Source of the DNA: an uncultured Candidatus Saccharibacteria bacterium
Lineage (GTDB): Bacteria; Patescibacteriota; Saccharimonadia; CAZBQI01
DNA length: 64,000 bases
NCBI GenBank assembly: GCA_964494105.1
Contig: CAZBQI010000001.1
Coordinates: 67,126-131,125, forward strand
Direction of reading: 5' to 3'
Made by a program: the position numbers and the translations under genes. How positions within the stretch are numbered: position 1 is the first letter of the stretch; every line of letters begins with the position of its first letter. Shown here one piece after another: positions 1,908-62,692 of the stretch. Under the pieces are notes generated by a model, which worked only from the letters and a program-made list of their open reading frames with translations, made no database searches and had not been told where the DNA came from.

Positions 1908-2451
1908 TATCCTGCACAACCACATTAGCGACACTCTCAGCATCAGCTAAAATATGTTCGTCCGGCTGGGGCCCGCCGTTGCTGATAATTAACCAAACAT
2001 TGCTCTTTAGTACGTTTAATTGGCCGAGCTCCGGGTTCCAAAAAGCCATTTCACCAATACCGGTTACTTCTTGGGCACCTTCGGGCACTGGATCGAATTG
2101 CGCCTGGTTGCTTTCGGCACCAGCTTCGGTTTTAGGTGAGCGGGCCAAAACGCTAGCGGTTTTAATGCCGGATACCGTACCGGTGTCGTAAGTATATGTA
2201 CAACTACTGACTGTCACATCATCATTACTGGCTGCTGTTTCGCCACTTTCGCCTTTCGTAGTGGTGCTACCTAAAATGGCTTGAGCTTCTTCAAGGGTGA
2301 AGATTTCGCAAGCATCGATTATCTGAAAATTTTGAGTGACTTGTTCGTTCTGCACAGTCTCTTGCGGATTTGGCTTGAAAATCAACCACCCAGTAATCCC
2401 CAAAGTGACAATTATTAACGTGACTACAATTATTGTTAAGGATTTCTTCAT
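1900..2451 (-). CDS. hypothetical N-terminally anchored secreted protein
   Basis: The ORF track starts it at 2553. The internal ATG at 2451 (MKKSLTIIVVTLIIV...) gives a canonical signal-anchor, and the extension would overlap the divergent neighbour. End overlaps the convergent upstream ORF. Confidence 0.4.
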   Translation of the reverse strand: MKKSLTIIVVTLIIVTLGITGWLIFKPNPQETVQNEQVTQNFQIIDACEIFTLEEAQAILGSTTTKGESGETAASNDDVTVSSCTYTYDTGTVSGIKTASVLARSPKTEAGAESNQAQFDPVPEGAQEVTGIGEMAFWNPELGQLNVLKSNVWLIISNGGPQPDEHILADAESVANVVVQDIN

Positions 2452-2524
2452 AAACACCCTTTTTCTTAATACATTCAGTGTAACAAATGATTTAAGAAAC
2501 AAAGTAGGCTGTATAATATTACCA

Positions 2525-5467
2525 ATGCAAAAACGAAGGTGGCTAAACACCAAATTAGTGCTTGGCGTAGGAATTATATTTGTTTCTATATATACTTTTG
2601 CTACTCATTATTCACCGGTGCGCGCAGATCTAACGACTGGTTTACTTGTTCACTACACCTTTGAAAATACTAGTGGTAGCAATGTATACGATAGCTCAGG
2701 AAATAATCGAACTGCTTCACTAAGCGGTAATGCCACAATAAGTAGTGGCCTTTCAGGTAGCGGCGTTAACTTTGATGGAACTTCTGGCTATATGCAGGTG
2801 CCTCATCAGTTGGTGCCTGGCCAGCAGGCAGATTTTACCTACAGTTTTTTTGTTAAAGCCGATGCAGGTGGTGATAGCAATCAGTACTTAATGGGTCAAA
2901 GTAGTAGTGGCACGTTCAATAATGATTGCTTTAGCGTAGATTACGACAACGTAGGCAAGTCTTTAAAAGTACTAGCTACAAATAATGGTAATGGTGCTCA
3001 AATAACAACCTCGGCTGATCTTTCGAACTGGACGCATATTGCAGTCACAAATTCGCATACTTACGGTGAGTCGCAAGTATATGTCAATGGAGTTGCTACT
3101 TCAGGCCCAGAGGCGACATGTAGTCAGGCTCTCGCCAGTCAGTTTATGATTGGTAGAGCGCCTTACAGCGGTTATAACATGGAATTAGACGGGTCAATGG
3201 ACGAGATCCGGGTTTATAATCGCGTATTAAGCGCCGCCGAAATTTACCAGTTAGCTACCGAAGGCAATACGAATTCAGTTAACATAACTAGCCCAAGCAA
3301 TGGCAGTACTGTTAAGGGCTCTGTGAATCTTACTGCTAGTACGAGCGGTAGCCCTGCAATTGCATCGGTTAAGTATTATGCCAATGGAAGTGCACTTAGC
3401 ACGGCACTAACAACAGATCCCTATACATATACTTGGGATCTTAGTGCTGTCGAGCAAGGAGAGTATTTGCTGGTGGCTGTTGCTACCGATGTAAATGGGG
3501 TTACTGTGCCATCACAAGCCGTATTAGTAACGGTCGACAACGACCCAACAATAGCCATGCAAAGCTCCAAGAGTATACAGAAAACATCGAACAGGATTGC
3601 TTGGATAACTAGTGAGCCCACCACAGCGCGCGTGGATTATGGGTTAACAAGTTCATATGGTTCACAGACTACTCTTGATACTTCACTAAGTTATTATCAC
3701 GAGCAAACTCTGTCTAATTTAACGCCTGGTACAACTTATCATTACCGTGTCACATCCGTGGATTCTAATGATAATAGTGTTAGTTCTAGCGACTCGACCT
3801 TTACTACAATTAGTGATGCCACAGGTAATGAGTGGCATGTTACAACGAGTGGAACGTCTGGTGGAAATGGCTCAGTTAGTAACCCGTGGGATTTAGCGAC
3901 GGCTTTAGCGCAACCAGTTGCTGTTCAGCCAGGTGACACAATTTGGCTACATGGGGGGAACTATAGTGGAAACTACTCCAGCACGTTAACTGGTTCTGCC
4001 ACAGCGCCAATAGTTGTGCGTAACTACAACGATGAAAGAGTGATTATAGATGGTGGAGGTGGAAGCGGTTTTGCCCTGACTGTATATGGCTCGGATGCTT
4101 GGTACTGGGGTCTAGAAATTATGAGTTCTGGACTCGATAGGGATGTGTCTAACGCTGGATCGAGCCCGCCGGACCTAAACCACGCTTATGGATTTTATAT
4201 TTTTGGTGTTCGTACGCGGTTTATAAACAACATTGTTCACGACACGTCGCAGGGTTTTGGCTTTTGGACACCTGCAGTTGACTCAGAGCTTTATGGCAAT
4301 TTGGTTTACTACAACGGCTGGGAAGGTCCTGATCGTGGTCACGGACACGGTTTATATGTTCAAAATAATACCGGCATGAAGTACCTAGCTAATAATTTTG
4401 TATTTAGTAACTTTGGCTGGGGATTGCATGCTTACACTGAGGGAGGTCGCATAAATAACATTCAGACCGATGGCAATACTTTTTTTGAAAACGGTAAAAT
4501 CTCTGCCTTTGGATACACAACCAATCTGTTACATGGCGGGCTACAAATTGCTCAAAATCCAATGATTTTTAACAATGCAACCTATTACCCTCAAGCTGGA
4601 GGTGGTGGGGCGATAGGTCTTGGTTACAGTGCCGGATGCAATAGGCCAACGGTTGAGGGTAATTACTTTGCGGCAGAATCGGCCATTGATATTGGTGGTA
4701 GTTGTACTCATGAAACGTTTAAGAACAACTTATTTTATGGCAGTGTACCTGGTGGGCTTGAGACTAATTTCCCAGATAATACATATAAAACTAGCGCTCC
4801 TACTACTAATGCTACGCTACTGCGACCAAACCAATACGAGCCCAATAAAACAAATCTCACTATCTATAATTGGCAACAACTCAATAGTGTAGATGTGAAT
4901 CTATCCGCCGTCCTTACCGCTAATGATACGTACGAAATACGCGATGTTCAGAATTACTTTGGTGACCCAATTGCTAGTGGTACCTATGGGGGTAGTACAG
5001 TTTCTATTCCTATGAATTCAACGGCCGTTACAGCTGCTATTGGGTCTAATATACCGGTAGCACCAACTCATACCGCCAAAGAATTCGGCGCCTTTATGAT
5101 AATAAAGACCGGACACACCGACCCGGCTGATGAACCTCCAAGCGATGGTGCACCATCCTCAGGCGATGCCACTACAAATTCCACGAATAACACTAGTGGT
5201 TTTGGTAGAGTGTTGTCTATTATTAATACAGTTACACAATATGCTACAGGACAGTACTTCTTTGCCGATTCAGTTGTGGGCGTATCAGAACCAAACTCTA
5301 CTGACAGCACTGAAAAGAAAGTGGTAGAGGCCGGTCCTTTTGTTCAAGAAAATGCCTTAAAACAAATGTTCGCATCTCAGTGGCGTCCATTTTTAGCTAT
5401 TGGCGCTTTGACTCTAGCTGGAGGCTTGGTGGCAATTTATCTACGAAGGAAAACTAGAGTACATTAA
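2525..5467 (+). CDS. cell-surface LamG / Ig-like / FN3 / right-handed beta-helix protein with C-terminal TM anchor
   Basis: Start trimmed to ATG 2525 (MQKRRWLNTKLVLGVGIIF, signal-peptide-like). It has a LamG / concanavalin-like signature (DGSMDEIRVYNRVLSAAEIYQL), then Ig-like and FN3-like beta modules. A parallel beta-helix repeat region follows (NNIVHDTSQGFGFW, GNLVYYNGWEG, NNFVFSNFGWGLHAY). The C-terminus is a TM helix plus RRKTRVH. Confidence 0.7.
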   Translation: MQKRRWLNTKLVLGVGIIFVSIYTFATHYSPVRADLTTGLLVHYTFENTSGSNVYDSSGNNRTASLSGNATISSGLSGSGVNFDGTSGYMQVPHQLVPGQQADFTYSFFVKADAGGDSNQYLMGQSSSGTFNNDCFSVDYDNVGKSLKVLATNNGNGAQITTSADLSNWTHIAVTNSHTYGESQVYVNGVATSGPEATCSQALASQFMIGRAPYSGYNMELDGSMDEIRVYNRVLSAAEIYQLATEGNTNSVNITSPSNGSTVKGSVNLTASTSGSPAIASVKYYANGSALSTALTTDPYTYTWDLSAVEQGEYLLVAVATDVNGVTVPSQAVLVTVDNDPTIAMQSSKSIQKTSNRIAWITSEPTTARVDYGLTSSYGSQTTLDTSLSYYHEQTLSNLTPGTTYHYRVTSVDSNDNSVSSSDSTFTTISDATGNEWHVTTSGTSGGNGSVSNPWDLATALAQPVAVQPGDTIWLHGGNYSGNYSSTLTGSATAPIVVRNYNDERVIIDGGGGSGFALTVYGSDAWYWGLEIMSSGLDRDVSNAGSSPPDLNHAYGFYIFGVRTRFINNIVHDTSQGFGFWTPAVDSELYGNLVYYNGWEGPDRGHGHGLYVQNNTGMKYLANNFVFSNFGWGLHAYTEGGRINNIQTDGNTFFENGKISAFGYTTNLLHGGLQIAQNPMIFNNATYYPQAGGGGAIGLGYSAGCNRPTVEGNYFAAESAIDIGGSCTHETFKNNLFYGSVPGGLETNFPDNTYKTSAPTTNATLLRPNQYEPNKTNLTIYNWQQLNSVDVNLSAVLTANDTYEIRDVQNYFGDPIASGTYGGSTVSIPMNSTAVTAAIGSNIPVAPTHTAKEFGAFMIIKTGHTDPADEPPSDGAPSSGDATTNSTNNTSGFGRVLSIINTVTQYATGQYFFADSVVGVSEPNSTDSTEKKVVEAGPFVQENALKQMFASQWRPFLAIGALTLAGGLVAIYLRRKTRVH

Positions 5468-10322: not shown

Positions 10323-10994
10323 ATGGAACAGACGCCTAGAGAGCAACAGCCCGTAAAACAGAAAAGCAAATTTTCACCAACTCTAAATGTAATACTAATG
10401 GGGATATTAACGCTTGTATTGGCTATTGCTGCCGGCTATTTCTATTTGGAGTATAAGAAAATCAAAGAAAACCCACAGATTGTTACCAAGCAAGAAACTG
10501 AAGCATTGGTAGAGCAAGCAAACAAACTCATTGATTTGCCAAAAGACGAAACACCTCAGGTTGCAACCGTGCTAGATAAAGAAAAGCTCAAGGATCAGCC
10601 GTTTTTTGCTAATGCTCAAAATGGCGATAAAATACTGATTTATACCAAGGCCAAAAAAGCGGTAATTATACGACCGAAAGAAAATCGCCTGATTAATGTG
10701 GGGCCGATTGCTATTGATCAGAAAGCGCTAGTATCTGTTGCGCTGGTAAACGCCGGCGGAGACGTGGCAAAGGCCGAAAAGTCGATAAACGATGCCCTCA
10801 ACGCATCAGTTAGCATTAGTGGTAAGTCAAACGCCAAAACCAAGAATGTTAAGCAAATGATTGTAGTTGATGTTAGTGGCCAAAACGCCGAAGCTGCCGA
10901 ACAGATAGCCAGCGCAGTAGGTGGTGGCGTAGGTGCACTACCAAGTGGCGAAAGTGCCCCAGACGGCGCAGCCATTGTTGTATTCGTTAAGTAA
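10323..10994 (+). CDS. membrane-anchored LytR_C (cell-envelope-related) domain protein
   Basis: N-terminal TM helix. The C-terminal region (KNVKQMIVVDVSGQNAEAAEQIASAVGG) resembles a LytR C-terminal domain. Confidence 0.45.
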   Translation: MEQTPREQQPVKQKSKFSPTLNVILMGILTLVLAIAAGYFYLEYKKIKENPQIVTKQETEALVEQANKLIDLPKDETPQVATVLDKEKLKDQPFFANAQNGDKILIYTKAKKAVIIRPKENRLINVGPIAIDQKALVSVALVNAGGDVAKAEKSINDALNASVSISGKSNAKTKNVKQMIVVDVSGQNAEAAEQIASAVGGGVGALPSGESAPDGAAIVVFVK

Positions 10995-11076
10995 AACATA
11001 CCACTATAATTTATTTGACGAACAGCCTTTCTACCTCTATTATATAAGCATAAGTTAAGTGTGAGAAACCAAACAA

Positions 11077-11451
11077 ATGGCTGTGGGAAAAAAAATACTT
11101 ATTATTGAAGACGAAGTGTCTTTGCTGAATCCTTTGTTACAGAAGTTTAAAGATAAAGATTTTGATGTACATGGCGAAAAGAACGGTCGAGACGGACTGA
11201 AGAAGGTAAAAGCACTAAAGCCAGACATGGTTTTATTGGACTTAGTAATGCCCGAAATGGACGGCTTAACAATGCTACAGGCGCTACGCTCTGATTCTGC
11301 AATTAAAAACACTAAGGTCATTGTGTTAAGTAATCTAAGTGATGTCGAAAAAGCCAGCAAAGCAGCTGCGCTTGGTGCACTAGACTACATAGTGAAATCC
11401 GATTGGAAAATTAACGATATTGTTAAGCGAGTATCAGAAAAGCTGGCTTAG
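11077..11451 (+). CDS. stand-alone CheY-like response-regulator receiver domain
   Basis: 124 aa with ILIIEDE, the phospho-acceptor region LLDLVMPEMDG and a conserved downstream K, and no output domain. Its stop is 2 nt before the giant-gene ATG. Confidence 0.8.
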   Translation: MAVGKKILIIEDEVSLLNPLLQKFKDKDFDVHGEKNGRDGLKKVKALKPDMVLLDLVMPEMDGLTMLQALRSDSAIKNTKVIVLSNLSDVEKASKAAALGALDYIVKSDWKINDIVKRVSEKLA

Positions 11452-11453
11452 AC

Positions 11454-14400
11454 ATGTCTAAGCCAAAACAATCAAACGCGCCCAAGAGCAATCTTAAAGT
11501 TCCTGATAATTCGCCGGTTACAGGGGCCGATTATTCAAATGCGGTCGGGACGCTACTATTAGAGAATTCAAAAAACAGCGCTCGTTTGCGACGTTGGGGT
11601 CTTTTAATGCTAGGGCTTCAGCTCGCCGGAGCAGCCCTACTAATAGTTACTGGATTGTCGTTCTTTAATACCTACTACAGCCAAAAGAATATCGAAAAAA
11701 TAAAGAAAGACCCACTTGGCGAAGTAAAGATAGATTTCCAAGACATTGCCAAAGGATCGATTGGGTTTGATCAGCTTGATCCAGGCGTTATTACCAAAAT
11801 TGAACAGATAGATCGCACTCTTTTAGGTCAGCAAGGTAAGGTTGGCCCCCAGGGGCCGGCCGGCTCGACAACCGGTTCGGTGATTAGTGTTGGGTCAGGC
11901 GCCGGCCTTACCGGTGGCACAATAACATCGCGCGGCACATTAGCAATTAGCGCACCAACCTGCGCCGCTAATGAACGGCTTAGCTGGACTGGCACGGCAT
12001 TTGCCTGCCAAGCTGTTGCCTCCGGCACTGCCTCCGGCACCAGCCCGATTGTGTTCGATAGCAACACTGGCGATATAAGTTGCCCCACGTGCCTGACTAC
12101 AGTTGGTATTGCGTTTTCGGCAGCAGCCGATAGTGGTACAGACCAAAATTTGAATATTGGCGATACCCTAAGCTTAATTGGTGGTAACGGTATTTCTACC
12201 GCTGCGTCACTTAGCAATAACATCACCTTTAGCCTTGTCGATACTGCCGTCACGCCCGGTTTCTATGGTACCACCAGCTCTGTACCGTCGTTTACCGTTG
12301 ATGCCCAAGGCCGAATAACTGCTGCCAGTGATACGGCGATTAGTATTAATGCCAGTGCTATTTCTGCGGGAACTCTATCTGTTACCCGTGGTGGTACCGG
12401 TGTCGATGGCTCAGGTGCTACCAATGGCCAGCTCCTGATTGGTAACGGCAGTGGTTACAGTTTAGCTAATCTTACGGCTACCGGTCCTTTGGGCGTTACC
12501 AATGGTGCCGGCACCATAAACCTCACTTGTGCAACTTGTGTTACGACCAGTGGTAACGGTGCCATTACCAGTTCTGGTGGCGATGTCACATTAAGCGGTA
12601 CTACAACTGGCCGGTTAATTGGCTCGGGCAATGTTAACTTTGATCTATCTTCTACCGGAGTGGTGGGTGCTACCTACGGTTCAGCCAGTTCAGTACCCGT
12701 CTTTACAGTTGATGGTAAGGGCCGCATTACTTCAGCCAGTAATACGGCGATTGCTGGTTTAACTAGTTCTAATTTATCGGGCAGTGCTGCCATCACTAAT
12801 GCCCAGTTACAAAATAGCGTTATCACCTTTAATTCGGGTAACGGCTTAACTGGTGGCGGGGCGGTGTCGCTTGGCGGCAGTACTAGCTTGGCCATTAGTG
12901 CGCCTACTTGTCTTTCAAACGAACGGCTTAGTTGGAGCGGGTCGGCCTTTACCTGCGCAACCGTTGCTGCAGGCGGTAGCCAGGCGGCGAACACCTTTTT
13001 TGCTGGGCCGAGCTCCGGCGGTGCGGCGGCGCCTGGTTTTCGCGGAATTGTTGCAGCCGATTTAGGTACCGGCACAGCTAATTCGCAATCCGTTTTGGCC
13101 GGTAACCAAACTTGGCTGCCATTGCTTGATGGCGGCGGCAAGATTTTAACCAGCCTATTGCCTGCCAGTGGTTTAAATTATCAAGGATCTTGGAACGCTA
13201 ATACCAATACGCCAAGCTTAAGTAGTAGTGGCGGCGGTGGCGTACAGGGCGATTTTTATATTATTGACGTGGCAGGAACAACCTCGATTGATGGTAATAG
13301 CACGTGGAACGTTGGCGACTGGATTCTAAATAATGGCGCAACATGGGATCGGATATCAAATACAAATGCGGTTAGTAGTGTTAATGGTCAAACTGGCGCG
13401 GTAGTACTAGATAGTGATGATGTATCGGAAGGCGTCAGTAACTTGTACTTTACCAATGCTCGTGCCCGCGGGGCACTATCCGGCACCGGGCCGATTAGTT
13501 ACAATTCCGGCACTGGAGTAATTGATTGCCCAACCTGTGTTACCACTAGTGGTAACGGGGATATTGTTTCCGGTACAGGCCTATCAATATCTGGCACAAC
13601 TACTGGACGACTCATTGGTACTGGCAATGTGACTTTTGGCTTGTCGACGGCTGTACCAACAAGTGTAGTAAACGACACCAACGTTACGGGCTCGATTTCG
13701 GCTAATGCTTTGACGCTGGGTTGGACTGGTCAACTATCAACAGCCCGTGGTGGTACCGGTGTCGATGGCTCAGGTGCTACCAATGGCCAGCTCCTGATTG
13801 GTAACGGCAGTGGTTACAGTTTAGCTAATCTTACGGCTACCGGTCCTTTGGGCGTTACCAATGGTGCCGGCACCATAAACCTCACTTGTGCAACTTGTGT
13901 TACGACCAGTGGTAACGGTGCCATTACCAGTTCTGGTGGCGATGTCACATTAAGCGGTACTACAACTGGCCGGTTAATTGGCTCGGGCAATGTTAACTTT
14001 GATCTATCTTCTACCGGAGTGGTGGGTGCTACCTACGGTTCAGCCAGTTCAGTACCCGTCTTTACAGTTGATGGTAAGGGCCGCATTACTTCAGCCTCCA
14101 ACACCGCCATTGCCCTAAACGCCTCTGCCATTACCGCCGGTACCCTCAGTGTTACCCGTGGCGGTACCGGAGTAGATGGTTCCGGCGCCACCAACGGCCA
14201 GCTGTTGATCGGTAACGGTACGGGGTACTCTTTGGCCACGCTAGCCTCATCCGGGCCTATTGGTATTACTAACTCCGCTGGTGGCATTAGTATTGGTTGT
14301 GCAACCTGCCTAACAACCGGTACAACCTTATTTACCGCGGCTGGTGATGTTGGTGTAAACCAAAGCGTGACCCAGGGCCAAACCATTACCTTTATTGGTG

Positions 14401-16385
14401 GCGTTGGTTTAACCACTACAGGTTCTGCTACCCGAAATATGACAATAGATTTGGATAATACCGCCGTCACCCCCGGTTCCTATGGTACTGCTAGTTCAGT
14501 AGGCTCATTTACTGTAGATGCGCAGGGACGAATTATCGCTGCTAGCAACTCATCGATATCTATCAACGCCAGCGCAATTACAGCCGGCACCGGGTCGGTA
14601 TCATTCACTTCTGCAACATCCAATGCAATTTCGCTCGACTCTGGAACAACCGGCGGGATAAATATTGGAACAGGTGCGAACTCGAAGACCATTACCATCG
14701 GTAACACTACCGGTACAACCGGTATTAACATCGACTCCGGTAGCGGTAACATTAATTTGCGTCCTGGTGGTTCCGGGACAACCGCTAATGTCCAAATAGG
14801 TGCTGGCGGGGCTGGCTCGACAACGCCCGATTTATTGGTGCTTGATAGAAAAAGTAGTGCCGGTGACCCTGCCGGTACCAACGGTGCAATGTATTATAAT
14901 GCTAGCTCAAATAAATTCCGTTGTTTCGAAAACTCCACCTGGAGGGACTGTATCAAGGGGTCAATAAACCTTGGTCATGCGGCCACCTACGACACGAACG
15001 AAGCCCTTACTAATGTGGCAGCTTCTCAGGTGACTCTCGGTACGGTATCTGTTACGCCAGCATCGGATACTGGTGATGTCTATGTAACTGGCAACGCGGA
15101 TGTCTATAGTAGCAACAATACCGACCAAACATTTGTATTTACCATAGAAACCGGGTCAACTTGTACCGGTACGACTGTGGCGACAAGGTCATATACAATT
15201 ACTGCATCGAACTCCGCAACGGTAGGCCGTGGCTCACTTGTAGTAAGTGGTATTGTCTCTGACCCCGGTGAGTCTTCGCAGGCATATTCACTCTGCGCAT
15301 CAACTGCAACAGGTGATACCGATGTTCTGAACTGGCGTATCGAAGCATTGGTTATTGAATCAGCAGGTGCTGATGTTGCGGAGATGTATTATACGCACGA
15401 TGATGCCCGGCCCGGCGAAGTTGTAAGTATTGACGGCAGTATGAAGGCTGGTGTTCGTAGATCAAACGGCTCGTACGATCCTATGGTGTTGGGTATTATA
15501 AGCACAAAGCCAGGGTACGTTCTTGCTGATGCTGAGGGGGTCGACCCTACGGCTAGGCCGGTTATACTGGCTCTTGCCGGTCGTGTTCCAGTCAAAGTTT
15601 CGGACGAAAATGGGCCAATAAAGGCTGGCGATGCGCTGACACCATCGTCGATACCGGGCGTGGCTATGAAAGCTACCCAAAACGGCTGGGTACTTGGCGT
15701 AGCCATAGAAGACCAAAAGCCAGGAGCGGGCACCTTGATGACTTTTGTGAATAGATCTTGGTATACAGGGGGCAGTAATAACCCCCCCTCACTGACCGGT
15801 ATGAGTTTAGGCGATGCAGATTTACCTGGCATAAAATCAGCCCAATCCGAAGGTGTAAAGAACGGCTTGCAATCAGAAAATCCGGAGTTGGTTGCTCAAG
15901 CTTTGGGCATTTTAAATGATATTCAAAATACGGTGGTAACCCAGCAAACCCAGCTCAACGCACTTGAAGCTAATCAAGCCAAAGCCAGCTCGAATTCACA
16001 GCAGATTAACCAAGCGATATTTAATGGCGGTATTGTGGCCGGCGATGTAGAGTTCCAAGGCAACGCCACCTTTAATGCTATCGCCACATTCAAGGGTCAG
16101 AGTGTCTTTAAGGGGGGTGCTATATTTGAAGGAGACGTAGCAATTAATGGGCGCGTGAAGTTCGGTGCTAATGGATCGGGCGTGGCAACTGTACCAGCCG
16201 GCGCCACGAGCGTTACAGTTAGCTTTACTAGCCCGTATGACGGACGGCCAATTGTAAACTTAACTCCTATAGATTACGACGGGAAATTCAAACTTAGTGG
16301 CGCATCGGCCGGTGGCTTTACGATTGTACTAGATTCGCCCGTGCCAAGCCCGGTAGAGTTTAACTGGTTAGCGAGTGAAAATTAA
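11454..16385 (+). CDS. giant (1643 aa) membrane-anchored repeat fibre protein (tail-fibre-like beta repeats)
   Basis: A cytoplasmic N-terminus of about 50 aa is followed by one TM helix (LLMLGLQLAGAALLIVTGLSFF). A short Gly-X-Y run follows (GQQGKVGPQGPAG). There are then many Gly/Thr/Ser-rich repeats carrying recurring CPTC / CATC motifs, including a protein-level repeat present in two exact copies. The C-terminal part is non-repetitive, with a coiled-coil-like segment (LNALEANQAKASS). Confidence 0.7.
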   Translation: MSKPKQSNAPKSNLKVPDNSPVTGADYSNAVGTLLLENSKNSARLRRWGLLMLGLQLAGAALLIVTGLSFFNTYYSQKNIEKIKKDPLGEVKIDFQDIAKGSIGFDQLDPGVITKIEQIDRTLLGQQGKVGPQGPAGSTTGSVISVGSGAGLTGGTITSRGTLAISAPTCAANERLSWTGTAFACQAVASGTASGTSPIVFDSNTGDISCPTCLTTVGIAFSAAADSGTDQNLNIGDTLSLIGGNGISTAASLSNNITFSLVDTAVTPGFYGTTSSVPSFTVDAQGRITAASDTAISINASAISAGTLSVTRGGTGVDGSGATNGQLLIGNGSGYSLANLTATGPLGVTNGAGTINLTCATCVTTSGNGAITSSGGDVTLSGTTTGRLIGSGNVNFDLSSTGVVGATYGSASSVPVFTVDGKGRITSASNTAIAGLTSSNLSGSAAITNAQLQNSVITFNSGNGLTGGGAVSLGGSTSLAISAPTCLSNERLSWSGSAFTCATVAAGGSQAANTFFAGPSSGGAAAPGFRGIVAADLGTGTANSQSVLAGNQTWLPLLDGGGKILTSLLPASGLNYQGSWNANTNTPSLSSSGGGGVQGDFYIIDVAGTTSIDGNSTWNVGDWILNNGATWDRISNTNAVSSVNGQTGAVVLDSDDVSEGVSNLYFTNARARGALSGTGPISYNSGTGVIDCPTCVTTSGNGDIVSGTGLSISGTTTGRLIGTGNVTFGLSTAVPTSVVNDTNVTGSISANALTLGWTGQLSTARGGTGVDGSGATNGQLLIGNGSGYSLANLTATGPLGVTNGAGTINLTCATCVTTSGNGAITSSGGDVTLSGTTTGRLIGSGNVNFDLSSTGVVGATYGSASSVPVFTVDGKGRITSASNTAIALNASAITAGTLSVTRGGTGVDGSGATNGQLLIGNGTGYSLATLASSGPIGITNSAGGISIGCATCLTTGTTLFTAAGDVGVNQSVTQGQTITFIGGVGLTTTGSATRNMTIDLDNTAVTPGSYGTASSVGSFTVDAQGRIIAASNSSISINASAITAGTGSVSFTSATSNAISLDSGTTGGINIGTGANSKTITIGNTTGTTGINIDSGSGNINLRPGGSGTTANVQIGAGGAGSTTPDLLVLDRKSSAGDPAGTNGAMYYNASSNKFRCFENSTWRDCIKGSINLGHAATYDTNEALTNVAASQVTLGTVSVTPASDTGDVYVTGNADVYSSNNTDQTFVFTIETGSTCTGTTVATRSYTITASNSATVGRGSLVVSGIVSDPGESSQAYSLCASTATGDTDVLNWRIEALVIESAGADVAEMYYTHDDARPGEVVSIDGSMKAGVRRSNGSYDPMVLGIISTKPGYVLADAEGVDPTARPVILALAGRVPVKVSDENGPIKAGDALTPSSIPGVAMKATQNGWVLGVAIEDQKPGAGTLMTFVNRSWYTGGSNNPPSLTGMSLGDADLPGIKSAQSEGVKNGLQSENPELVAQALGILNDIQNTVVTQQTQLNALEANQAKASSNSQQINQAIFNGGIVAGDVEFQGNATFNAIATFKGQSVFKGGAIFEGDVAINGRVKFGANGSGVATVPAGATSVTVSFTSPYDGRPIVNLTPIDYDGKFKLSGASAGGFTIVLDSPVPSPVEFNWLASEN
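12385..12737 (+). repeat. 353-bp perfect direct repeat, copy 1 (inside the giant gene)
   Basis: Identical by eye, base for base, to 13744-14096. Encodes RGGTGVDGSGATNGQLLIGNGSGYSLANLTATGPLGVTNGAGTINLTCATCVTT... Confidence 0.9.
13744..14096 (+). repeat. 353-bp perfect direct repeat, copy 2 (inside the giant gene)
   Basis: Identical to 12385-12737. The offset is 1359 bp, a multiple of 3. A third copy diverged at synonymous sites starts near 14157. Confidence 0.9.
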
Positions 16386-16457
16386 CGTGGTTTTCAAGGC
16401 GGAATTTGCTAGACTCAATGAAGTAAACTACAAAGCCAAATTGAAGACGGAATATAT

Positions 16458-18830
16458 ATGAAACAGAGAACATCTTGGGCACACCCTGTTAAGAGATTGC
16501 CATTTTCTAATCGCTTAAATCTATTAGAATTTGACAACAAGGTTGTAGCAGCCGAATTTTTGCGTAAAAAGAAAATTGGCCAAAACACCTACGAATTTAA
16601 ATTTGCATTGCATCGTAGCATTAAATATGTGCCTGGCCAATATGTTTGGCTTAATCTGCCGCAATTGCGGGCAACAGATAAGAAAGGCGCACGGCGAGCA
16701 ATGTCTATCGTGTATGTGGGGGCTGGCAATAAAGAGATTTCTATCGCAATGAGAATAAGCGATAGTAGTTTCAAGAAAGCTGCATTGCGGCTTACTTCGG
16801 GACAACAGGTAGAAATTATCGGGCCTAATGGTTCTTCTTTTTGCTTGCCGGAAAATGGAAAACAATCAGTTGTGCTTATTGCTGGCGGCACAGGTATTGC
16901 TCCGTTTGTAAACTTAGTACAAAATGAAGAATATAAAAAATCGAAAAGGACAATTCACCTTTTCTATACAGATGAGGGTGGCAATAGTGCGCCATATTTA
17001 GGTTTACTTAACAAAATAAAGTTAAACAACTATCACTTAAAATTTAGCCAAGTGCCTTTTGCTGAAAATGATTTTGCAGGAATTCATGAGTCGATGCGAG
17101 CAATATATTATCTAAGCGGACCTCAGAAATTTGTTGATTTCTACTACCGATTACTTAGCGGTATGGGAATTGCAAAATCAAGCATGAGGTTTGAAAATTT
17201 CTACCCAAGTAATGATGTTGTAGAGCTTATGCAACAGCTGTTTCGCGATGGCGATGCAATAAAACCCGTACCTGGAGATACCAAATTAGCCATTCAGCGG
17301 CGCGATATTTTGCTATCGGCAATACAAAGCTCATCACACCACATAGTCATCACTGACATTAATGGCGTTATTGTACTGGCAAACAAAGCTGCAGAAAGAA
17401 TAACAGGTTTTAGTTTTTACGAAATGGAAGGGCAAACACCACGCCTGTGGGGAGGGCTAATGCCTGTAAATTTCTATTCCAAACTATGGAACAGTAAGCT
17501 ACACGGGCTAACAATTGACGAAGAGATTGTTAACCGGCGTAAAGACGGATCGCTTTACTTGGTTATGTCGCACATTTCACCGATAAAAAATAAGCATGGC
17601 AAGGCGATAGGGTTTATTGGCACTGAAGAGGACATTACCCTGAACCGTCAAAAAGAAATCGAATCAAACACCATAGCTGAACAACTGGAGTCGACATTAT
17701 TAGGGATTGCCGAAGGTCTAATAATCACTGACGGTAAAGGAAGAATACAGCGGGTAAATGCAGCAGCTTGTAGCATGTTAGGTTATAGCCAAAAAGAGCT
17801 AGTTGGTAAAAATGCGAATGATGCTATTGAAATGCTTGATTCGAAAGAAGTCCCGATACCAAAAAATGAACGGATCACCAGCAGAGTAATCTCAAGTTCG
17901 GCGCCAGTAGTAACTGAAGATATTGCAAACAGCATATATTACCGAAAAAAGGACGGAACTAAGTTTCCCGTATATGTTGCGGCTTCACCAGTAATAGAAA
18001 ACAGTCGAATGGTTGGTTCTGTAGAAATATTTAGAGACATAAGTCGAGATAAAGAAATTGACATTGCAAAATCAGAGTTCGTATCTTTAGCTTCGCATCA
18101 GTTGCGTACTCCACTCTCGGCCATTAATTGGAATGCGGAACTCTTAATGGGAGGAGATGCGGGTAAGTTAACCGCTGACCAAGCGAACTTCGTAAAGGAA
18201 ATTTACAGTAGTAGTCAAAGAATGGTGGATCTAGTCAGGTCATTACTAAACGTCTCTCGTATCGAGCTTGGTACACTTGGTTTTGATCCATCGCCACAAA
18301 ATGTAAACGAATTGATAAAGGCAATTATGGCAGACGAAAGACTGCTTCGTGATAAAGAAGAAATTTCAGTTAAACTCAATCTTTCAAAAATACCTAGGAT
18401 ACCTGTCGATCCAAGACTAGTTACGCTACTAGTGCAAAATCTTGGTAGTAATGCTATTAAGTACTCGAAACATGGTGGCGAAATTATTGTGACAAGTGAA
18501 TATCTGGCAAATCCTTCAAAAAGAAAGAATTTTAGAAAAAAAGGTATAAAAATCCCAAGTGTATATTTGTGTTTTAAAGATAGTGGTATTGGTATTCCAA
18601 AAGAACAGCAAAAAAATATATTTTCAAAAATGTTCCGAGCTGATAACGCCCAGGAGCAAGTAACTGATGGTAATGGTTTGGGCTTGTATATGGTTAAGGG
18701 GATTGTCGAGAGCATTGATGGCAAAATATGGTTTGAATCTAGCGTAAAAAATGGCACAAGTTTCCACGTATTATTGCCACTTGAAGGCTTGGCCAAAAAG
18801 GATTCAGGTATAAAACTACTTGATGTATAA
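16458..18830 (+). CDS. soluble sensor histidine kinase: ferredoxin-reductase-like FAD/NAD(P) module + 2 PAS + HisKA + HATPase
   Basis: The N-terminus has an FNR-type FAD-binding signature (RAMSIVY, i.e. RxYS-like) and the NAD-binding motif GGTGIAPF. Two PAS-like regions follow. The H-box is SHQLRTPL, the N-box NLGSNAIKYS, and the G-boxes DSGIGIP and GNGLGL. No TM helix. Confidence 0.8.
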   Translation: MKQRTSWAHPVKRLPFSNRLNLLEFDNKVVAAEFLRKKKIGQNTYEFKFALHRSIKYVPGQYVWLNLPQLRATDKKGARRAMSIVYVGAGNKEISIAMRISDSSFKKAALRLTSGQQVEIIGPNGSSFCLPENGKQSVVLIAGGTGIAPFVNLVQNEEYKKSKRTIHLFYTDEGGNSAPYLGLLNKIKLNNYHLKFSQVPFAENDFAGIHESMRAIYYLSGPQKFVDFYYRLLSGMGIAKSSMRFENFYPSNDVVELMQQLFRDGDAIKPVPGDTKLAIQRRDILLSAIQSSSHHIVITDINGVIVLANKAAERITGFSFYEMEGQTPRLWGGLMPVNFYSKLWNSKLHGLTIDEEIVNRRKDGSLYLVMSHISPIKNKHGKAIGFIGTEEDITLNRQKEIESNTIAEQLESTLLGIAEGLIITDGKGRIQRVNAAACSMLGYSQKELVGKNANDAIEMLDSKEVPIPKNERITSRVISSSAPVVTEDIANSIYYRKKDGTKFPVYVAASPVIENSRMVGSVEIFRDISRDKEIDIAKSEFVSLASHQLRTPLSAINWNAELLMGGDAGKLTADQANFVKEIYSSSQRMVDLVRSLLNVSRIELGTLGFDPSPQNVNELIKAIMADERLLRDKEEISVKLNLSKIPRIPVDPRLVTLLVQNLGSNAIKYSKHGGEIIVTSEYLANPSKRKNFRKKGIKIPSVYLCFKDSGIGIPKEQQKNIFSKMFRADNAQEQVTDGNGLGLYMVKGIVESIDGKIWFESSVKNGTSFHVLLPLEGLAKKDSGIKLLDV

Positions 18831-18839
18831 TCGAAAACT

Positions 18840-19229
18840 ATGGATGCCAGGCTGAAAAGCACGATTCTTATTGTTGAAGACGAAATCCCTTTACAAAAAG
18901 TAGTTGGGTTTAAGCTCAAGAATGCCGGGTTTAATGTGATTTCTGCAAGGAAAGCCGAAGAGGCAATAAACTATATTAAGACTGCCGAATCAATTGACTT
19001 AGTTTGGCTAGACCATTACTTAATCGGTACGAAAACCGGATTAGATATTGTAAAAATAATCAAAAACAGCTCCGAGTTCAAACATATACCAATTTTTGTT
19101 GTAACCAATTCAGCTGACCTTAATAAGAAGCACGCATATATTAAATTTGGAATTGAAAAATATTTTATTAAATCAGACTTACGCCTAGATGAAGTAATAG
19201 ATGCTATTAAAGCCTCTCTAAAAGAATAG
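18840..19229 (+). CDS. stand-alone CheY-like receiver domain protein
   Basis: 129 aa with ILIVEDE ... LVWLDHYL and no output domain. Starts 10 nt after the kinase stop. Confidence 0.7.
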   Translation: MDARLKSTILIVEDEIPLQKVVGFKLKNAGFNVISARKAEEAINYIKTAESIDLVWLDHYLIGTKTGLDIVKIIKNSSEFKHIPIFVVTNSADLNKKHAYIKFGIEKYFIKSDLRLDEVIDAIKASLKE

Positions 19230-19286
19230 GCTACTGCAAAGTGATGCGTAGGTGTAGAATAGGCATAAGCACTAAACGAGCCAATA

Positions 19287-19682
19287 ATGGAACCTAATGA
19301 CAAAGGCAAAAAGAAAATACTAGTTGTTGAGGATGATAAATCTGTAAATGCAGCGATGAGTGCCGGCCTGACAAACAATGGCTATTTAGTTACAGCAAAA
19401 ATGAATGGCGCTGAGGGAATAGAAGCTACAAATACTAATGATTTTGATGTAATTATTCTCGACCTTACTATGCCAAAGATGGACGGGCTTGATGTGCTAA
19501 AAACACTTAAAGCCAATCCCAAAACGAAGCAAATACCAGTTATTATCGCGACTAATAACACGCAAACTGAGCTGGTTTATGAATGTATTGCCGCCGGCGC
19601 GCGCGATTACTTTATAAAGTCTGACATTACACTCATACAGCTATGCGCAGCTATCGACAAAGCTTTAGCTAGCATTGAATAA
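19287..19682 (+). CDS. stand-alone CheY-like receiver domain protein
   Basis: 131 aa with ILVVEDD ... VIILDLTMPKMDG ... K, and no output domain. Confidence 0.8.
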   Translation: MEPNDKGKKKILVVEDDKSVNAAMSAGLTNNGYLVTAKMNGAEGIEATNTNDFDVIILDLTMPKMDGLDVLKTLKANPKTKQIPVIIATNNTQTELVYECIAAGARDYFIKSDITLIQLCAAIDKALASIE

Positions 19683-41607: not shown

Positions 41608-41682
41608 ACTGAATTTGGCTAAACATACTTTTTCAGGCTATTCTAATTGATGATAATTCTTATGTTAAAAATGCGTGAGCTT

Positions 41683-42162
41683 ATGTCACGACCTACCATC
41701 CAAAAAAACTCTTCGGGCTTTACAATCGTAGAGCTAATAGTAGTTTTGGTGGTAATAGCGTTATTAATAGCGCTTACACTACCAACTATATTTAGTTTGC
41801 CAAAGCGAGCACGCGACACCCAGCGCAAGAAGGACCTAAAAGACATTCAGTTAGTCGCCGAAGAAGTTTTTGTAGATAATAACGGCTCTTATGGTCCGAA
41901 TGGACCGCTGGATCTTGATTTTTCGCAAATGAGCGACTTCTTTGACTATATGAACGAAAAAAGAAACGTGAATGTGCGAGACCCGAAAACAAACGAATAC
42001 TATGGAATTATCATATCTCCTCCGGATTGTCCCTTCGATCCAGGCTACTGCGATTCTTATACCTTGTTCGCAAATTTAGAGAACTGCAGTGACAAAGAAG
42101 CCGACAATCAGTGTCGATATAAAGTTAAGAGCATACCAAACCCAGACGAAACTTTAGAGTAG
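41683..42162 (+). CDS. type IV pilin / pseudopilin-like protein
   Basis: Class III signal peptide (MSRPTIQKNSSGFTIVELIVVLVVIALLIAL, i.e. G-F-T-x-x-E). Start chosen at ATG 41683; the ATG at 41671 is also possible. Confidence 0.6.
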   Translation: MSRPTIQKNSSGFTIVELIVVLVVIALLIALTLPTIFSLPKRARDTQRKKDLKDIQLVAEEVFVDNNGSYGPNGPLDLDFSQMSDFFDYMNEKRNVNVRDPKTNEYYGIIISPPDCPFDPGYCDSYTLFANLENCSDKEADNQCRYKVKSIPNPDETLE

Positions 42163-60424: not shown

Positions 60425-61465
60425 GTGAAAATATTTAATCAAAGCGTTACTCAAATTGGATTGGATATTGGCACCACGGGTGTGCGGATGGTAGAGCTAG
60501 AATTTTCAAAAAACGAAACCAAATTACTGTGTAATGCTAGTCAGACAATTAGCACTAATGTATCTGAGAGTCAGACCGTCGAGGATCACCAGGAGCTGAT
60601 CGCTACAATAAAGAAACTAATTACGGATTCCGGCGCGACAAGCAGAAGTGCAGTAATTAGCTTGCCGTTATCAAAAACCACATCGACGCTTTTAAAAACG
60701 TCAAAAAAGTCCGATGAAGAGCTCAAGCCGTTGGTAAAGAAGCAAGTGGAGCACTTTACCTCGATGCCAATAAATCAGTTGGCTTATGATTGGATTACAA
60801 CCGATGACAGCATGCCGGATAATCAGATTGAAATATTAACGGTGGCTTGTCCTATTTCATTAGCCCAAAAATATACCGGTTTGGCGTCCAAAGCCGGTCT
60901 AAAGGTAATAGCAGTGGAGCCGGGAGGGATTAGTATTGCACGCAATTTAGCTTCAGTAACCAAGCTGGGCAAGGTGATCGTTCACTTGGGTGCGTACTCT
61001 ACAGATATTGTAATCGTTTATAAGAACACCCCCCGAATCATGCGCTCAATACCGGTTGGTGGCGAGACTATAGTAAACGAGCTAACCAACGAAGCAACGA
61101 TAGAACTCGGACAGGCTCGACAACTTATTGCCAGCTTTGGGCTTAGCCCGGGCAAGCTAGAAGGGCAACTGCAACGCATAATTAAAGCTTCAATCGATAA
61201 GATTATTGATGAAGTAAAGAACACCAAGTTAGTTTTCTTAAATAGATACAAAGATGCTGTAATTGAGCAAATAGTCGTTAGCGGAGGGTCCTCGCAAATT
61301 CCGGGCTTACCCAGCTATATTGCAAATCAAATTAGCTTGCCGGTAGAAATCGGGAATTCATGGGTAGGAATATCTTATGACGTTGCCCGGCAAGATAAAT
61401 TGCTGCAAGAATCTGCCTCTTATTGCGTAGCAGCTGGCTTGGCCCAGCGATCGGTAAGGTTTTGA
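60425..61465 (+). CDS. pilM: type IV pilus assembly ATPase-fold protein PilM
   Basis: GTG start. The N-terminus IGLDIGTTGVRMVEL is actin-like (FtsA/PilM). The neighbouring genes are consistent. Confidence 0.7.
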   Translation: MKIFNQSVTQIGLDIGTTGVRMVELEFSKNETKLLCNASQTISTNVSESQTVEDHQELIATIKKLITDSGATSRSAVISLPLSKTTSTLLKTSKKSDEELKPLVKKQVEHFTSMPINQLAYDWITTDDSMPDNQIEILTVACPISLAQKYTGLASKAGLKVIAVEPGGISIARNLASVTKLGKVIVHLGAYSTDIVIVYKNTPRIMRSIPVGGETIVNELTNEATIELGQARQLIASFGLSPGKLEGQLQRIIKASIDKIIDEVKNTKLVFLNRYKDAVIEQIVVSGGSSQIPGLPSYIANQISLPVEIGNSWVGISYDVARQDKLLQESASYCVAAGLAQRSVRF

Positions 61466-61467
61466 AA

Positions 61468-62067
61468 ATGTCTAAACAAATAAACCTACTGCCACCAATT
61501 GACCAAAAAGAAATAAGCATCGAACATTCTCGTCAATCGTTAAAGGTGCTTCGTGGGTTAACTATCATATTTTTTACGGCTTTACCGCTTCTGCTGTTTT
61601 CTATTGTTACCATTCAATCAAGATATATCAGAAGCACCCAAGAACAAATCAATACTAGTCTAAGTGCCATCAAAAAAACACCCGGCCTCGACACAATGTT
61701 GACTGTTAAAAATGGTCTGGCAGCACTACCCAAGCTCTACCAGAAGAGAGTGCTGGTGTCCGATATATTTAAAGTACTGCCCGGCGTAAGTTCAACCAGC
61801 ATCCAGCTCACCGGCCTAACCGTAAATTCAGATGGTACTGTTGTGTTTAGCGGAAGCTCAAATAGCTACAATAGTATTTATAAGTTTTTCGAAGCCCTAA
61901 AGCAGTCGGGTAAAAACGCCGACCCAAGCGTTGTTAACAACCCAAATGCCAAAGGCCATTTTAGTAATCTGAAACTTGAGGATGTGGGTGGAATAAGTGG
62001 TGGCAGAGTTGCCTTTAAGATAACCGGCAATTACAATCGCCCACCAGTCGAGGTCAAAAATGATTAA
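61468..62067 (+). CDS. pilN: PilN-like pilus assembly protein
   Basis: Start at ATG 61468. INLLPP is the PilN hallmark, and one TM helix follows. Confidence 0.55.
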   Translation: MSKQINLLPPIDQKEISIEHSRQSLKVLRGLTIIFFTALPLLLFSIVTIQSRYIRSTQEQINTSLSAIKKTPGLDTMLTVKNGLAALPKLYQKRVLVSDIFKVLPGVSSTSIQLTGLTVNSDGTVVFSGSSNSYNSIYKFFEALKQSGKNADPSVVNNPNAKGHFSNLKLEDVGGISGGRVAFKITGNYNRPPVEVKND

Positions 62068-62692
62068 TAAACTTGCGGGTTTCTTTAAGTCGCGGTTTGC
62101 CAATCCGACCAAGGTAACGAAGTCGGCTCAGGTGGCGCTTTTTATCTTGTTTATTTTTTCTAGTATTTGGCTAAGCACTAAGCTTATCGGGGAGATTTCA
62201 TACAAACAGAAAGTAATAACTCAAAAGCGTTTAGTAAATACTATACTGAAATCAAACATTAGTGCGGTCGAGAAAATAAAGCAGAATTACGCTGTTCTAA
62301 AAAAGACCGGCCCAGAACCGAGCAAGGTGCTGATGGCGATACCGGTAGAAGCAAGCTTTGCTAGTTTAGGTAACGAATACGAAGCCATGGCCAGTACGAC
62401 CGGCGCCAGGCTTAGCAAGGTGGAGCAAATAGGAGAAGCCAAGAAACTTTCGAACGAAGACGCCCAGGATTCGCTCGCACAAGTTTGGGAATACCGCTAT
62501 AAAATAAAAGCCAAAGGTAATTACCTTAGCCTGCAAAACCTTACTAAAAGTATCGAGACACAATTAAGGCCAACAAAGATCGAATCCGTCAAAATTAGCG
62601 GGCTCGAGCCCGACCTGACAATTGAATACATCCTGACAGGATACTACCAGCCGGCAACTATAATAAGCCCCGCTACGGAGCCAATAAGATGA
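62060..62692 (+). CDS. PilO-like pilus assembly protein
   Basis: 210 aa with an N-terminal TM helix and a coiled-coil segment. It is translationally coupled to pilN. Confidence 0.4.
   Translation: MINKLAGFFKSRFANPTKVTKSAQVALFILFIFSSIWLSTKLIGEISYKQKVITQKRLVNTILKSNISAVEKIKQNYAVLKKTGPEPSKVLMAIPVEASFASLGNEYEAMASTTGARLSKVEQIGEAKKLSNEDAQDSLAQVWEYRYKIKAKGNYLSLQNLTKSIETQLRPTKIESVKISGLEPDLTIEYILTGYYQPATIISPATEPIR

Follow-up and report, generated by a model that had tools for sequence, protein, structure and literature searches.

An exact 353-bp repeat within a modular, tail-fibre-like gene of an uncultured Saccharibacterium and its probable origin by gene conversion

The stretch of DNA analysed here, in the following called the window, comprises 64,000 nucleotides (nt) from an uncultured Candidatus Saccharibacteria bacterium (GenBank assembly GCA_964494105.1, contig CAZBQI010000001.1, positions 67,126 to 131,125 of the forward strand) and carries a modular, tail-fibre-like gene, here called the fibre gene. 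Within this gene, two segments designated R1 (12385-12737) and R2 (13744-14096) were found to be identical without a single mismatch, and this identity is probably a recent gene-conversion tract between two old paralogous modules of the A type. The finding is best described as ordinary concerted evolution, brought about by gene conversion, of a modular gene resembling those for phage tail fibres; the phenomenon is of a known kind and is met here in a new, uncharacterised fibre family of Saccharibacteria and the candidate phyla radiation (CPR) that has no Pfam entry. Where genes for surface proteins contain perfect repeats, in-frame changes of length are well known to arise from them, and such repeats are equally well known as a hazard for assembly. 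Saccharibacteria and other CPR bacteria spend their lives attached to other microbes, and little is known of the proteins by which they attach.

The repeat pair and the edges of its identity

The maximal exact match between R1 and R2 comprises exactly 353 nt, their starts lie 1359 nt apart (3 x 453 codons), and both are read in one and the same frame of the open reading frame (ORF) 11454-16385 on the plus strand. A preliminary description of the window had reported this perfect identity, the in-frame offset of 453 codons, and a third copy near 14157 diverged at synonymous sites, and all three were recovered in our analysis. It had also spoken of a giant gene; with a product of 1643 aa, however, the gene is large rather than giant. 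The repeated unit does not comprise 1359 bp, as only the 353-bp module head is common to both places and the 1006 bp in between are unique. Outside the repeat, nucleotide identity at an offset of 1359 falls to chance level at once (10-25 matches per 60 nt), which rules out a tandem duplication of a 1359-bp unit. Since the match is bounded by such flanks and is both the sole repeat of at least 40 nt in the whole window and the sole repeat of at least 20 nt touching the fibre gene, chance is excluded as its cause. Tandem Repeats Finder reported nothing relevant, and a non-coding explanation was set aside, as the scans of the 64-kb window for Rfam families and tRNAs were empty.

Splitting the protein at the recurrent motif GGTG delimited its modules, which follow one another in the order N-terminal region, A-type head with C insert and B-type tail, A, D, and C-terminal tip. 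The modules of types A, B, and D measure about 120-150 aa each, and the supermodule A-C-B is larger. The N-terminal region (aa 1-312) is followed by a supermodule of 453 aa (aa 313-765), in which an A-type head precedes the large C insert (core at aa 430-690) and a B-type tail, then by an A module of 137 aa (aa 766-902), and finally by a D-type module and a conserved C-terminal region. The repeat encodes the 117-aa head of an A-type module, which is set in two different module contexts. All pairs of modules other than R1 and R2 revealed 57-78% nucleotide identity, with the same codon used for 25-50% of the identical residues, and further module copies, spaced at a period of 411 nt, reached only 71-78%. 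Regarding the third, D-type module, positions 14155-14236 match the initial 82 nt of the repeat at 78% identity; 36 of the first 48 residues of the two heads are identical, 12 of these 36 being encoded by the same codon.

What points to gene conversion is the sequence at both edges of the tract. Directly after R1, positions 12738-12755 (AGT AAT ACG GCG ATT GCT) encode SNTAIA, as do the six codons following R2 (Table 1), and five of the six codons differ between the two places, including serine AGT vs TCC. At the left edge, a G-x-L-S-x-x-R register is common to both copies, with synonymous differences (GGA/GGT, TCT/TCA). An A-type head in front of a C insert was also found in at least six homologs (P0002, P0004, P0005, P0006, P0008, and P0009), and an A module in front of a D module in the ortholog P0003, so that both module positions are ancestral and existed beforehand. 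The identity therefore begins and ends inside older homology with saturated silent sites, which argues for a conversion tract and not for a fresh duplication, in which the duplicated segment and the homology would end at the same places. Of the three origins considered in the preliminary description, namely recent duplication, gene conversion, or an assembly artefact, the diverged codons at the tract edges favour the second, and an artefact is made unlikely by the contig ends in two Logan assemblies and by similar tracts in the ortholog (both described below).

According to this mechanism, non-reciprocal homologous recombination, putatively of the RecA type and between sister modules, would have copied at least 353 bp of one A-type head onto its sister and erased their divergence. 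Neither the G+C content at third codon positions (GC3) nor the likeness to modules of homologs gave a clear answer on the direction of the donor. As a by-product, 353 bp of identity at a distance of 1 kb would provide a good substrate for unequal recombination; such events would probably be of low frequency and would drive the differences in module number among homologs.

The nearest full ortholog, P0003 (1896 aa), is encoded on an independent 988-kb JGI contig (locus L001, 10001-15691). It shares the N-terminal anchor region, its C-terminal region is 56% identical, and the locus is syntenic, with an upstream protein of 219 aa (64% identical) and an adjacent response regulator. Its modules follow the order N-A-B-A-B-A-D-...-tip without the C insert. 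Exact tracts of 263 nt and 173 nt were detected in this gene as well, at an offset of 771 (257 codons, i.e., A + B), occupying other module positions than the tract of the window. The flanks of these tracts, aligned in register, revealed 70-97% amino acid identity, with only 23-57% of the identical residues being codon-identical. These tracts of P0003 thus indicate that recurrent, patchy homogenisation is a property of the gene in independent genomes. Across the family, 25 of the 66 family-locus ORFs of at least 900 aa (a count including a few loci that duplicate one gene) harbored exact intragenic repeats of at least 40 nt, the longest having 297 nt, and every offset was divisible by three.

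In-frame length change and alternative origins

Only one recombination event is possible between the direct repeats R1 and R2, and it stays in frame. The predicted products comprise 1190 aa after deletion and 2096 aa after duplication, each with a single terminal stop, in agreement with the earlier statement that exactly 453 codons would be lost or gained. The deletion would remove the spacer X and one copy of R, and with them the C insert including its tail-protein-like beta domain and the B-type tail, leaving a product of the order N-A-D-tip that would, like P0003, be without the C insert, whereas the duplication would add 453 codons. In E. coli, direct repeats of such length and spacing reportedly recombine at an appreciable but low frequency. 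On evolutionary time, whole-module gain or loss in frame is documented by the homologs P0002 (L002, 6001-13179) and P0004, which are 83% identical over 2148 aligned residues and differ solely by two clean gaps of 120 aa, each gap corresponding to exactly one B module.

The designation of the pair as a ready-made length-variation switch, in contrast, went too far. Only two identical copies are present, which are not in tandem, no size variant has been demonstrated, and since a deletion leaves one R and no spacer, it could not revert, for which reason the term is not apt. Neither the 1190-aa nor the 2096-aa variant was present among about 15 billion predicted proteins; this is a weak negative, because only one full-length copy of the gene is on record. 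A regulated or reversible switch is unproven, and we found no evidence for one.

A related explanation sees in the gene a selected contingency locus, in which the identity of the modules is maintained for frequent loss or gain of 453 codons, thus varying the length or the binding content of the fibre. We regard this as improbable. It would fit an event that is in frame, respects module boundaries, and yields a deletion product that would share the absence of the C insert with the natural ortholog, a module number that differs between close homologs, and a protein that is plausibly surface exposed with a distal tip similar to tail-spikes or lectins. Moreover, one contig (L092) carries the exact junction predicted, A-R-C, at 100% identity. 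On the other hand, there is a single identical pair instead of a tandem array, and the remaining modules are strongly diverged, unlike in the arrays of Periscope proteins (PMC8201768). The irreversibility of the deletion, the absence of both variants from the protein set, and the lack of an invertase, a reverse transcriptase, or other dedicated variation machinery (Pfam, nearly all ORFs of at least 150 aa) also argue against it.

Contig L092 (ERZ27258505, k141_735320) has 1802 nt and consists of window positions 10961-12737 followed by 25 nt corresponding to 14097-14121, and its junction order is that of the predicted 1359-bp deletion allele. It is ambiguous, since reads of 150 nt cannot span the 353-nt repeat and MEGAHIT works without read pairs. 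The organism has low coverage in the MEGAHIT samples (contigs of 0.6-3 kb), and an end only 25 nt past R is also to be expected from tip clipping at a fork, which explains the contig equally well. That it represents a real short allele is therefore unlikely, though by no means negligibly so; in this case, an allele without the tail-protein-like C domain would exist. A more far-reaching scenario, in which the fibre is a host-attachment organelle, conversion and module loss or gain diversify populations at high frequency, and L092 is a co-circulating 1190-aa allele, seems quite doubtful to us. If true, the reach or the binding content of the fibre would change within populations of an episymbiotic Saccharibacterium. 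The idea of length variation is directly testable, since reads of the same strain are publicly available.

Improbable as well is a recent structural event, by which a 1359-bp block of R and X was inserted or rearranged through a single crossover within an A module. An intermediate, either circular or from the sister chromatid, could have been integrated, or modules could have been swapped with those of a paralogous fibre gene. The arrangement R-X-R, with an identical R at both ends, is indeed the topology expected after a single-crossover insertion, the modules are clearly shuffled among family members, and P0003 is without the C insert, so that the C block was gained or lost in one lineage. 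However, both edges of the tract lie within in-register, codon-diverged homology, for which an exactly placed later exchange would be needed, and the succession of A-type head and C insert is ancient, with A before D occurring in the ortholog.

The remaining alternative is an assembly artefact, in the sense that the copies are not identical or not two, be it due to homogenisation, a wrong loop count, or a strain chimera. A repeat of 353 bp is longer than short reads and common values of k, short-read assemblers need read pairs to resolve it, the true number of R-X units needs depth data, and the junction in L092 indicates that assemblers take different paths at this site. Nevertheless, exact look-ups of neighbouring proteins detected the same strain with 100% nucleotide identity in other public assemblies, namely in Logan contigs of SRR30303755, SRR8893623, and SRR30350710 and in ENA MEGAHIT contigs of ERZ27258501, ERZ27258505, and ERZ27258528. 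Logan contigs derive from de Bruijn assemblies with k=31, the construction of which ensures that each 31-mer occurs only once (PMC12424806). Two of them, L090 (SRR30303755) and L091 (SRR8893623), enter the gene from upstream and both end at 12414, i.e., 30 nt into the repeat, which corresponds to k-1. This stop in two independent runs requires a second left-hand context of the repeat, which is thus replicated in both read sets. Furthermore, the only place that a genome offers for the unique spacer X is between two copies of R, the same kind of exact tracts was found in the ortholog on its 988-kb contig and in many family members, and no assembler would merge copies that had diverged to the degree of the remaining modules (about 70%), so that an artefact is the least probable of these explanations. 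The fibre gene's 3' part is carried by another Logan contig (L086), which starts at 15476, where no in-window repeat of at least 20 nt is located; this start may be due to a coverage gap or to heterogeneity of strains.

Several points weigh against gene conversion. Beyond a few codons on each side, R1 and R2 adjoin different module types, so that the tract spans nearly all of the alignable sequence and an origin by module swap or insertion is possible. Neither recA nor other recombination genes were seen in the window, where no search aimed at them was made. A genome of the same species but of another structure was not found, and the most similar fibre homolog is 71% identical. The independent support by other assemblies reaches the branch at the left edge only, and not the full identity over 353 nt or the number of R-X units. 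An assembler can also traverse a loop too few times, and polishing or graph simplification can homogenise near-identical repeats, though this would still imply very similar copies. The model and the length of the fibre gene are accordingly provisional pending a copy number from long reads.

The fibre protein, its relatives, and its locus

Pfam and NCBIfam revealed no family for the whole protein or for four sub-regions of it, even at E values up to 5, and a PDB sequence search with the fibre protein gave no match. Near the N-terminus, a single transmembrane (TM) helix is predicted, which lies in a region conserved in the ortholog P0003 and, judging from the translation, suggests a membrane anchor with N-in, C-out topology. 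The C insert matched PHROG families of tail and minor tail proteins (phrog_31460, phrog_13892, and phrog_29238; E 1e-19 to 1e-20). A structural model of the 453-aa supermodule had a predicted local distance difference test (pLDDT) score of 48, and its only confidently modelled and usable part was a beta domain of about 60 aa (model residues about 262-322, pLDDT 75-89). Compared with BFVD, the supermodule model resulted in hits to phage tail-fibre and minor-tail models (best E 3e-13), which are largely sequence-driven, and a Foldseek search of the PDB with this model (pLDDT 48) resulted in no meaningful match.

Four elements were distinguished in the model of the C-terminal tip, namely a beta domain, an extended coiled coil, a short stretch resembling a beta-helix, and a beta sandwich at the end. 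The Foldseek matches of this model were weak (E 1e-4 to 1e-2) and comprised C-terminal portions of phage tailspikes, a C-terminal fragment of phi29 gp12, phage decoration proteins, and H-type lectins. Altogether, we infer that the fibre is an N-terminally membrane-anchored, probably trimeric, tail-fibre-like surface protein with a distal binding tip. In regard to base composition, window positions 12001-16000 have 50-51% G+C vs 42-45% in the flanks, with a GC3 of only 0.40-0.47; this excess is explained by a protein rich in Gly, Ala, Thr, and Ser rather than by an obvious foreign origin.

Homologs of the fibre were found in metagenome-assembled genomes of Dojkabacteria and Saccharibacteria. 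A scan of genome contigs for the same species gave only an unrelated Chitinophaga match, and a scan of metagenomes gave relatives of at most 61% identity. The fibre and PNPase proteins of the window were not found in the gene-position index, a search with the histidine kinase encoded downstream of the fibre gene gave no close ortholog, and in a protein set of 5.8 billion clusters, identity to homologs did not exceed 71% for the fibre and 63% for the kinase. The best named homologs of the PNPase belong to Candidatus Saccharimonadales. Two genomes (L084 and L085) encode a PNPase 96% and 94% identical to that of the window, respectively, yet the DNA of the shared regions is only 72-84% identical. 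The locus of fibre and kinase (11454-18830) looks lineage-specific or fast evolving. Module turnover driven by recombination in this family is relevant to the use of such proteins as markers and to searches for host-range determinants.

The fibre gene belongs to a signalling cluster (10323-19682) encoding a conserved membrane protein of 223 aa, a response regulator, the fibre, a PAS-domain histidine kinase, and two further response regulators. A response regulator also abuts the fibre gene in the ortholog locus L001, with PAS kinases nearby, and from this context it seems that the expression of the fibre is regulated. In L001, genes for an IS1595-family transposase and a Replic_Relax protein are located 5-7 kb upstream. 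In the window, genes for an AcrB-like transporter, VKOR, and YkuD were identified upstream of the fibre gene, and beyond the downstream response regulators those for PRPP synthetase, DnaG, RpoD, PolA, PNPase, RNase J, FtsK, and PilM. The fibre locus is chromosomal and not part of a prophage, and no phage genes were detected near the fibre gene in a Pfam scan covering nearly all window ORFs of at least 150 aa. The same scan revealed no reverse transcriptase, invertase, or transposase domain, so that mechanisms based on a diversity-generating retroelement (DGR), an invertase, or a transposase were rejected.

Nearly all real genes of the window (1-64000) are located on the plus strand, and the GC skew is positive throughout, which is consistent with one replichore whose genes are co-oriented. 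Further genes related to the cell surface were those for a 1043-aa LamG/Big_7/fn3 protein (2336-5467), for a protein with a prepilin-type N-methylation motif (41647-42162), and, at the end of the window, a PilM-led cluster of type IV pilus components (60425-62692).

Table 1. Coordinates of the repeat pair, parts of the fibre gene, and adjacent genes in the 64,000-nt window
Feature	Position	Strand	Description
Response regulator	11077..11451	+	Ends 2 nt before the start codon of the fibre gene; Pfam Response_reg on identical product; conserved in the ortholog locus
Fibre ORF	11454..16385	+	1643 aa, modular, tail-fibre-like; based on translation, PHROG tail-protein matches, module map, and homologs
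Predicted TM helix	11595..11666	+	aa 48-71, WGLLMLGLQLAGAALLIVTGLSFF; basic residues in front of it; derived from the translation itself
R1, exact copy 1	12385..12737	+	Head of A-type module (RGGTGVDG...GRITSA), followed by the C insert
Spacer X	12738..13743	+	Unique 1006 bp; C insert and B-type module tail; no match at offset 1359
Small conserved beta domain in X	13125..13436	+	aa 558-661; phrog_31460, E 9e-19; also present in phage tail proteins; sole confidently modelled part of the supermodule
R2, exact copy 2	13744..14096	+	Head of the next A-type module; B-type tail before, A-type tail after
Right tract edge	14097..14114	+	TCC AAC ACC GCC ATT GCC = SNTAIA, six codons after R2
Third-module head (D-type)	14157..14236	+	Old diverged copy of the repeat head; synonymous sites largely randomised
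C-terminal tip	15324..16382	+	aa 1291-1643; AlphaFold2 (AF2) mean pLDDT 75.8, end domains about 90
PAS-domain histidine kinase	16458..18830	+	Immediately downstream of the fibre gene

Comparison with known systems

For a DGR, a pair of variable and template repeats (VR/TR) differing at adenine positions, with a reverse transcriptase close by, would be characteristic, whereas the two copies of the fibre gene are identical and no reverse transcriptase domain was present in the scanned ORFs.

Periscope proteins, among them SasG, Rib, Sgo_0707, and CdrA contain tandem arrays of many highly identical domains, the copy number of which varies among strains (Whelan et al. 2021, PMC8201768). The fibre would be similar as a long, repetitive, putative surface protein, in which a stalk of repeats presumably lies between the predicted anchor and a distal domain with a probable function, and in which repeats identical at the DNA level would permit intragenic recombination with in-frame length change. 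In contrast to the tandem, highly identical DNA repeats of these proteins, only one non-adjacent identical pair is present here, with 1006 unique bases between its copies, and identity among other module pairs is 57-78%. Furthermore, the segment at risk holds a distinct globular insert and not a spacer unit, and the anchor is N-terminal. Copy-number variation of fibre modules was seen only between more distant homologs; of the contigs of the same strain, L090 and L091 break at the repeat and L092 joins A-R-C ambiguously. As for a surface location with a rod-like stalk, the fibre has a hydrophobic helix near its N-terminus and a folded tip at its C-terminus, and the model of the putative stalk has a pLDDT of 48.

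The gene cagY of H. pylori contains an extraordinary number of in-frame direct repeats, and within hosts its variants of different size have been demonstrated (Aras et al. 2003, PMC2194252). Both cases concern direct DNA repeats in a surface-protein gene, and in both every recombination event leads to deletion or duplication variants in frame; for the fibre gene, this follows from 1359 = 3 x 453 and one stop per product. They differ in that only one repeat pair is present here and size variants are not demonstrated.

The repeats of the streptococcal alpha C protein and of Rib have reportedly been homogenised by concerted evolution including synonymous sites, and whole repeats are said to be deleted. 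The fibre gene shares with them a homogenisation at the DNA level that includes silent sites. While those arrays are uniformly identical, homogenisation here is confined to a single patch within an otherwise diverged array, and P0003 is likewise patchy.

Finally, phage tail-fibre genes are said to be mosaic and modular. In the fibre gene, neighbours are transporter, signalling, and housekeeping genes instead of a prophage; that is, it differs from phage genes in being located among housekeeping and two-component genes of a chromosome and in encoding an N-terminal TM helix. The similarity to tail-fibre modules is apparent from the matches of the C insert to PHROG (E 1e-19 to 1e-20) and BFVD (E 3e-13), from the weak matches of the tip to tailspikes, and from a modular exchange through recombination at conserved segments.

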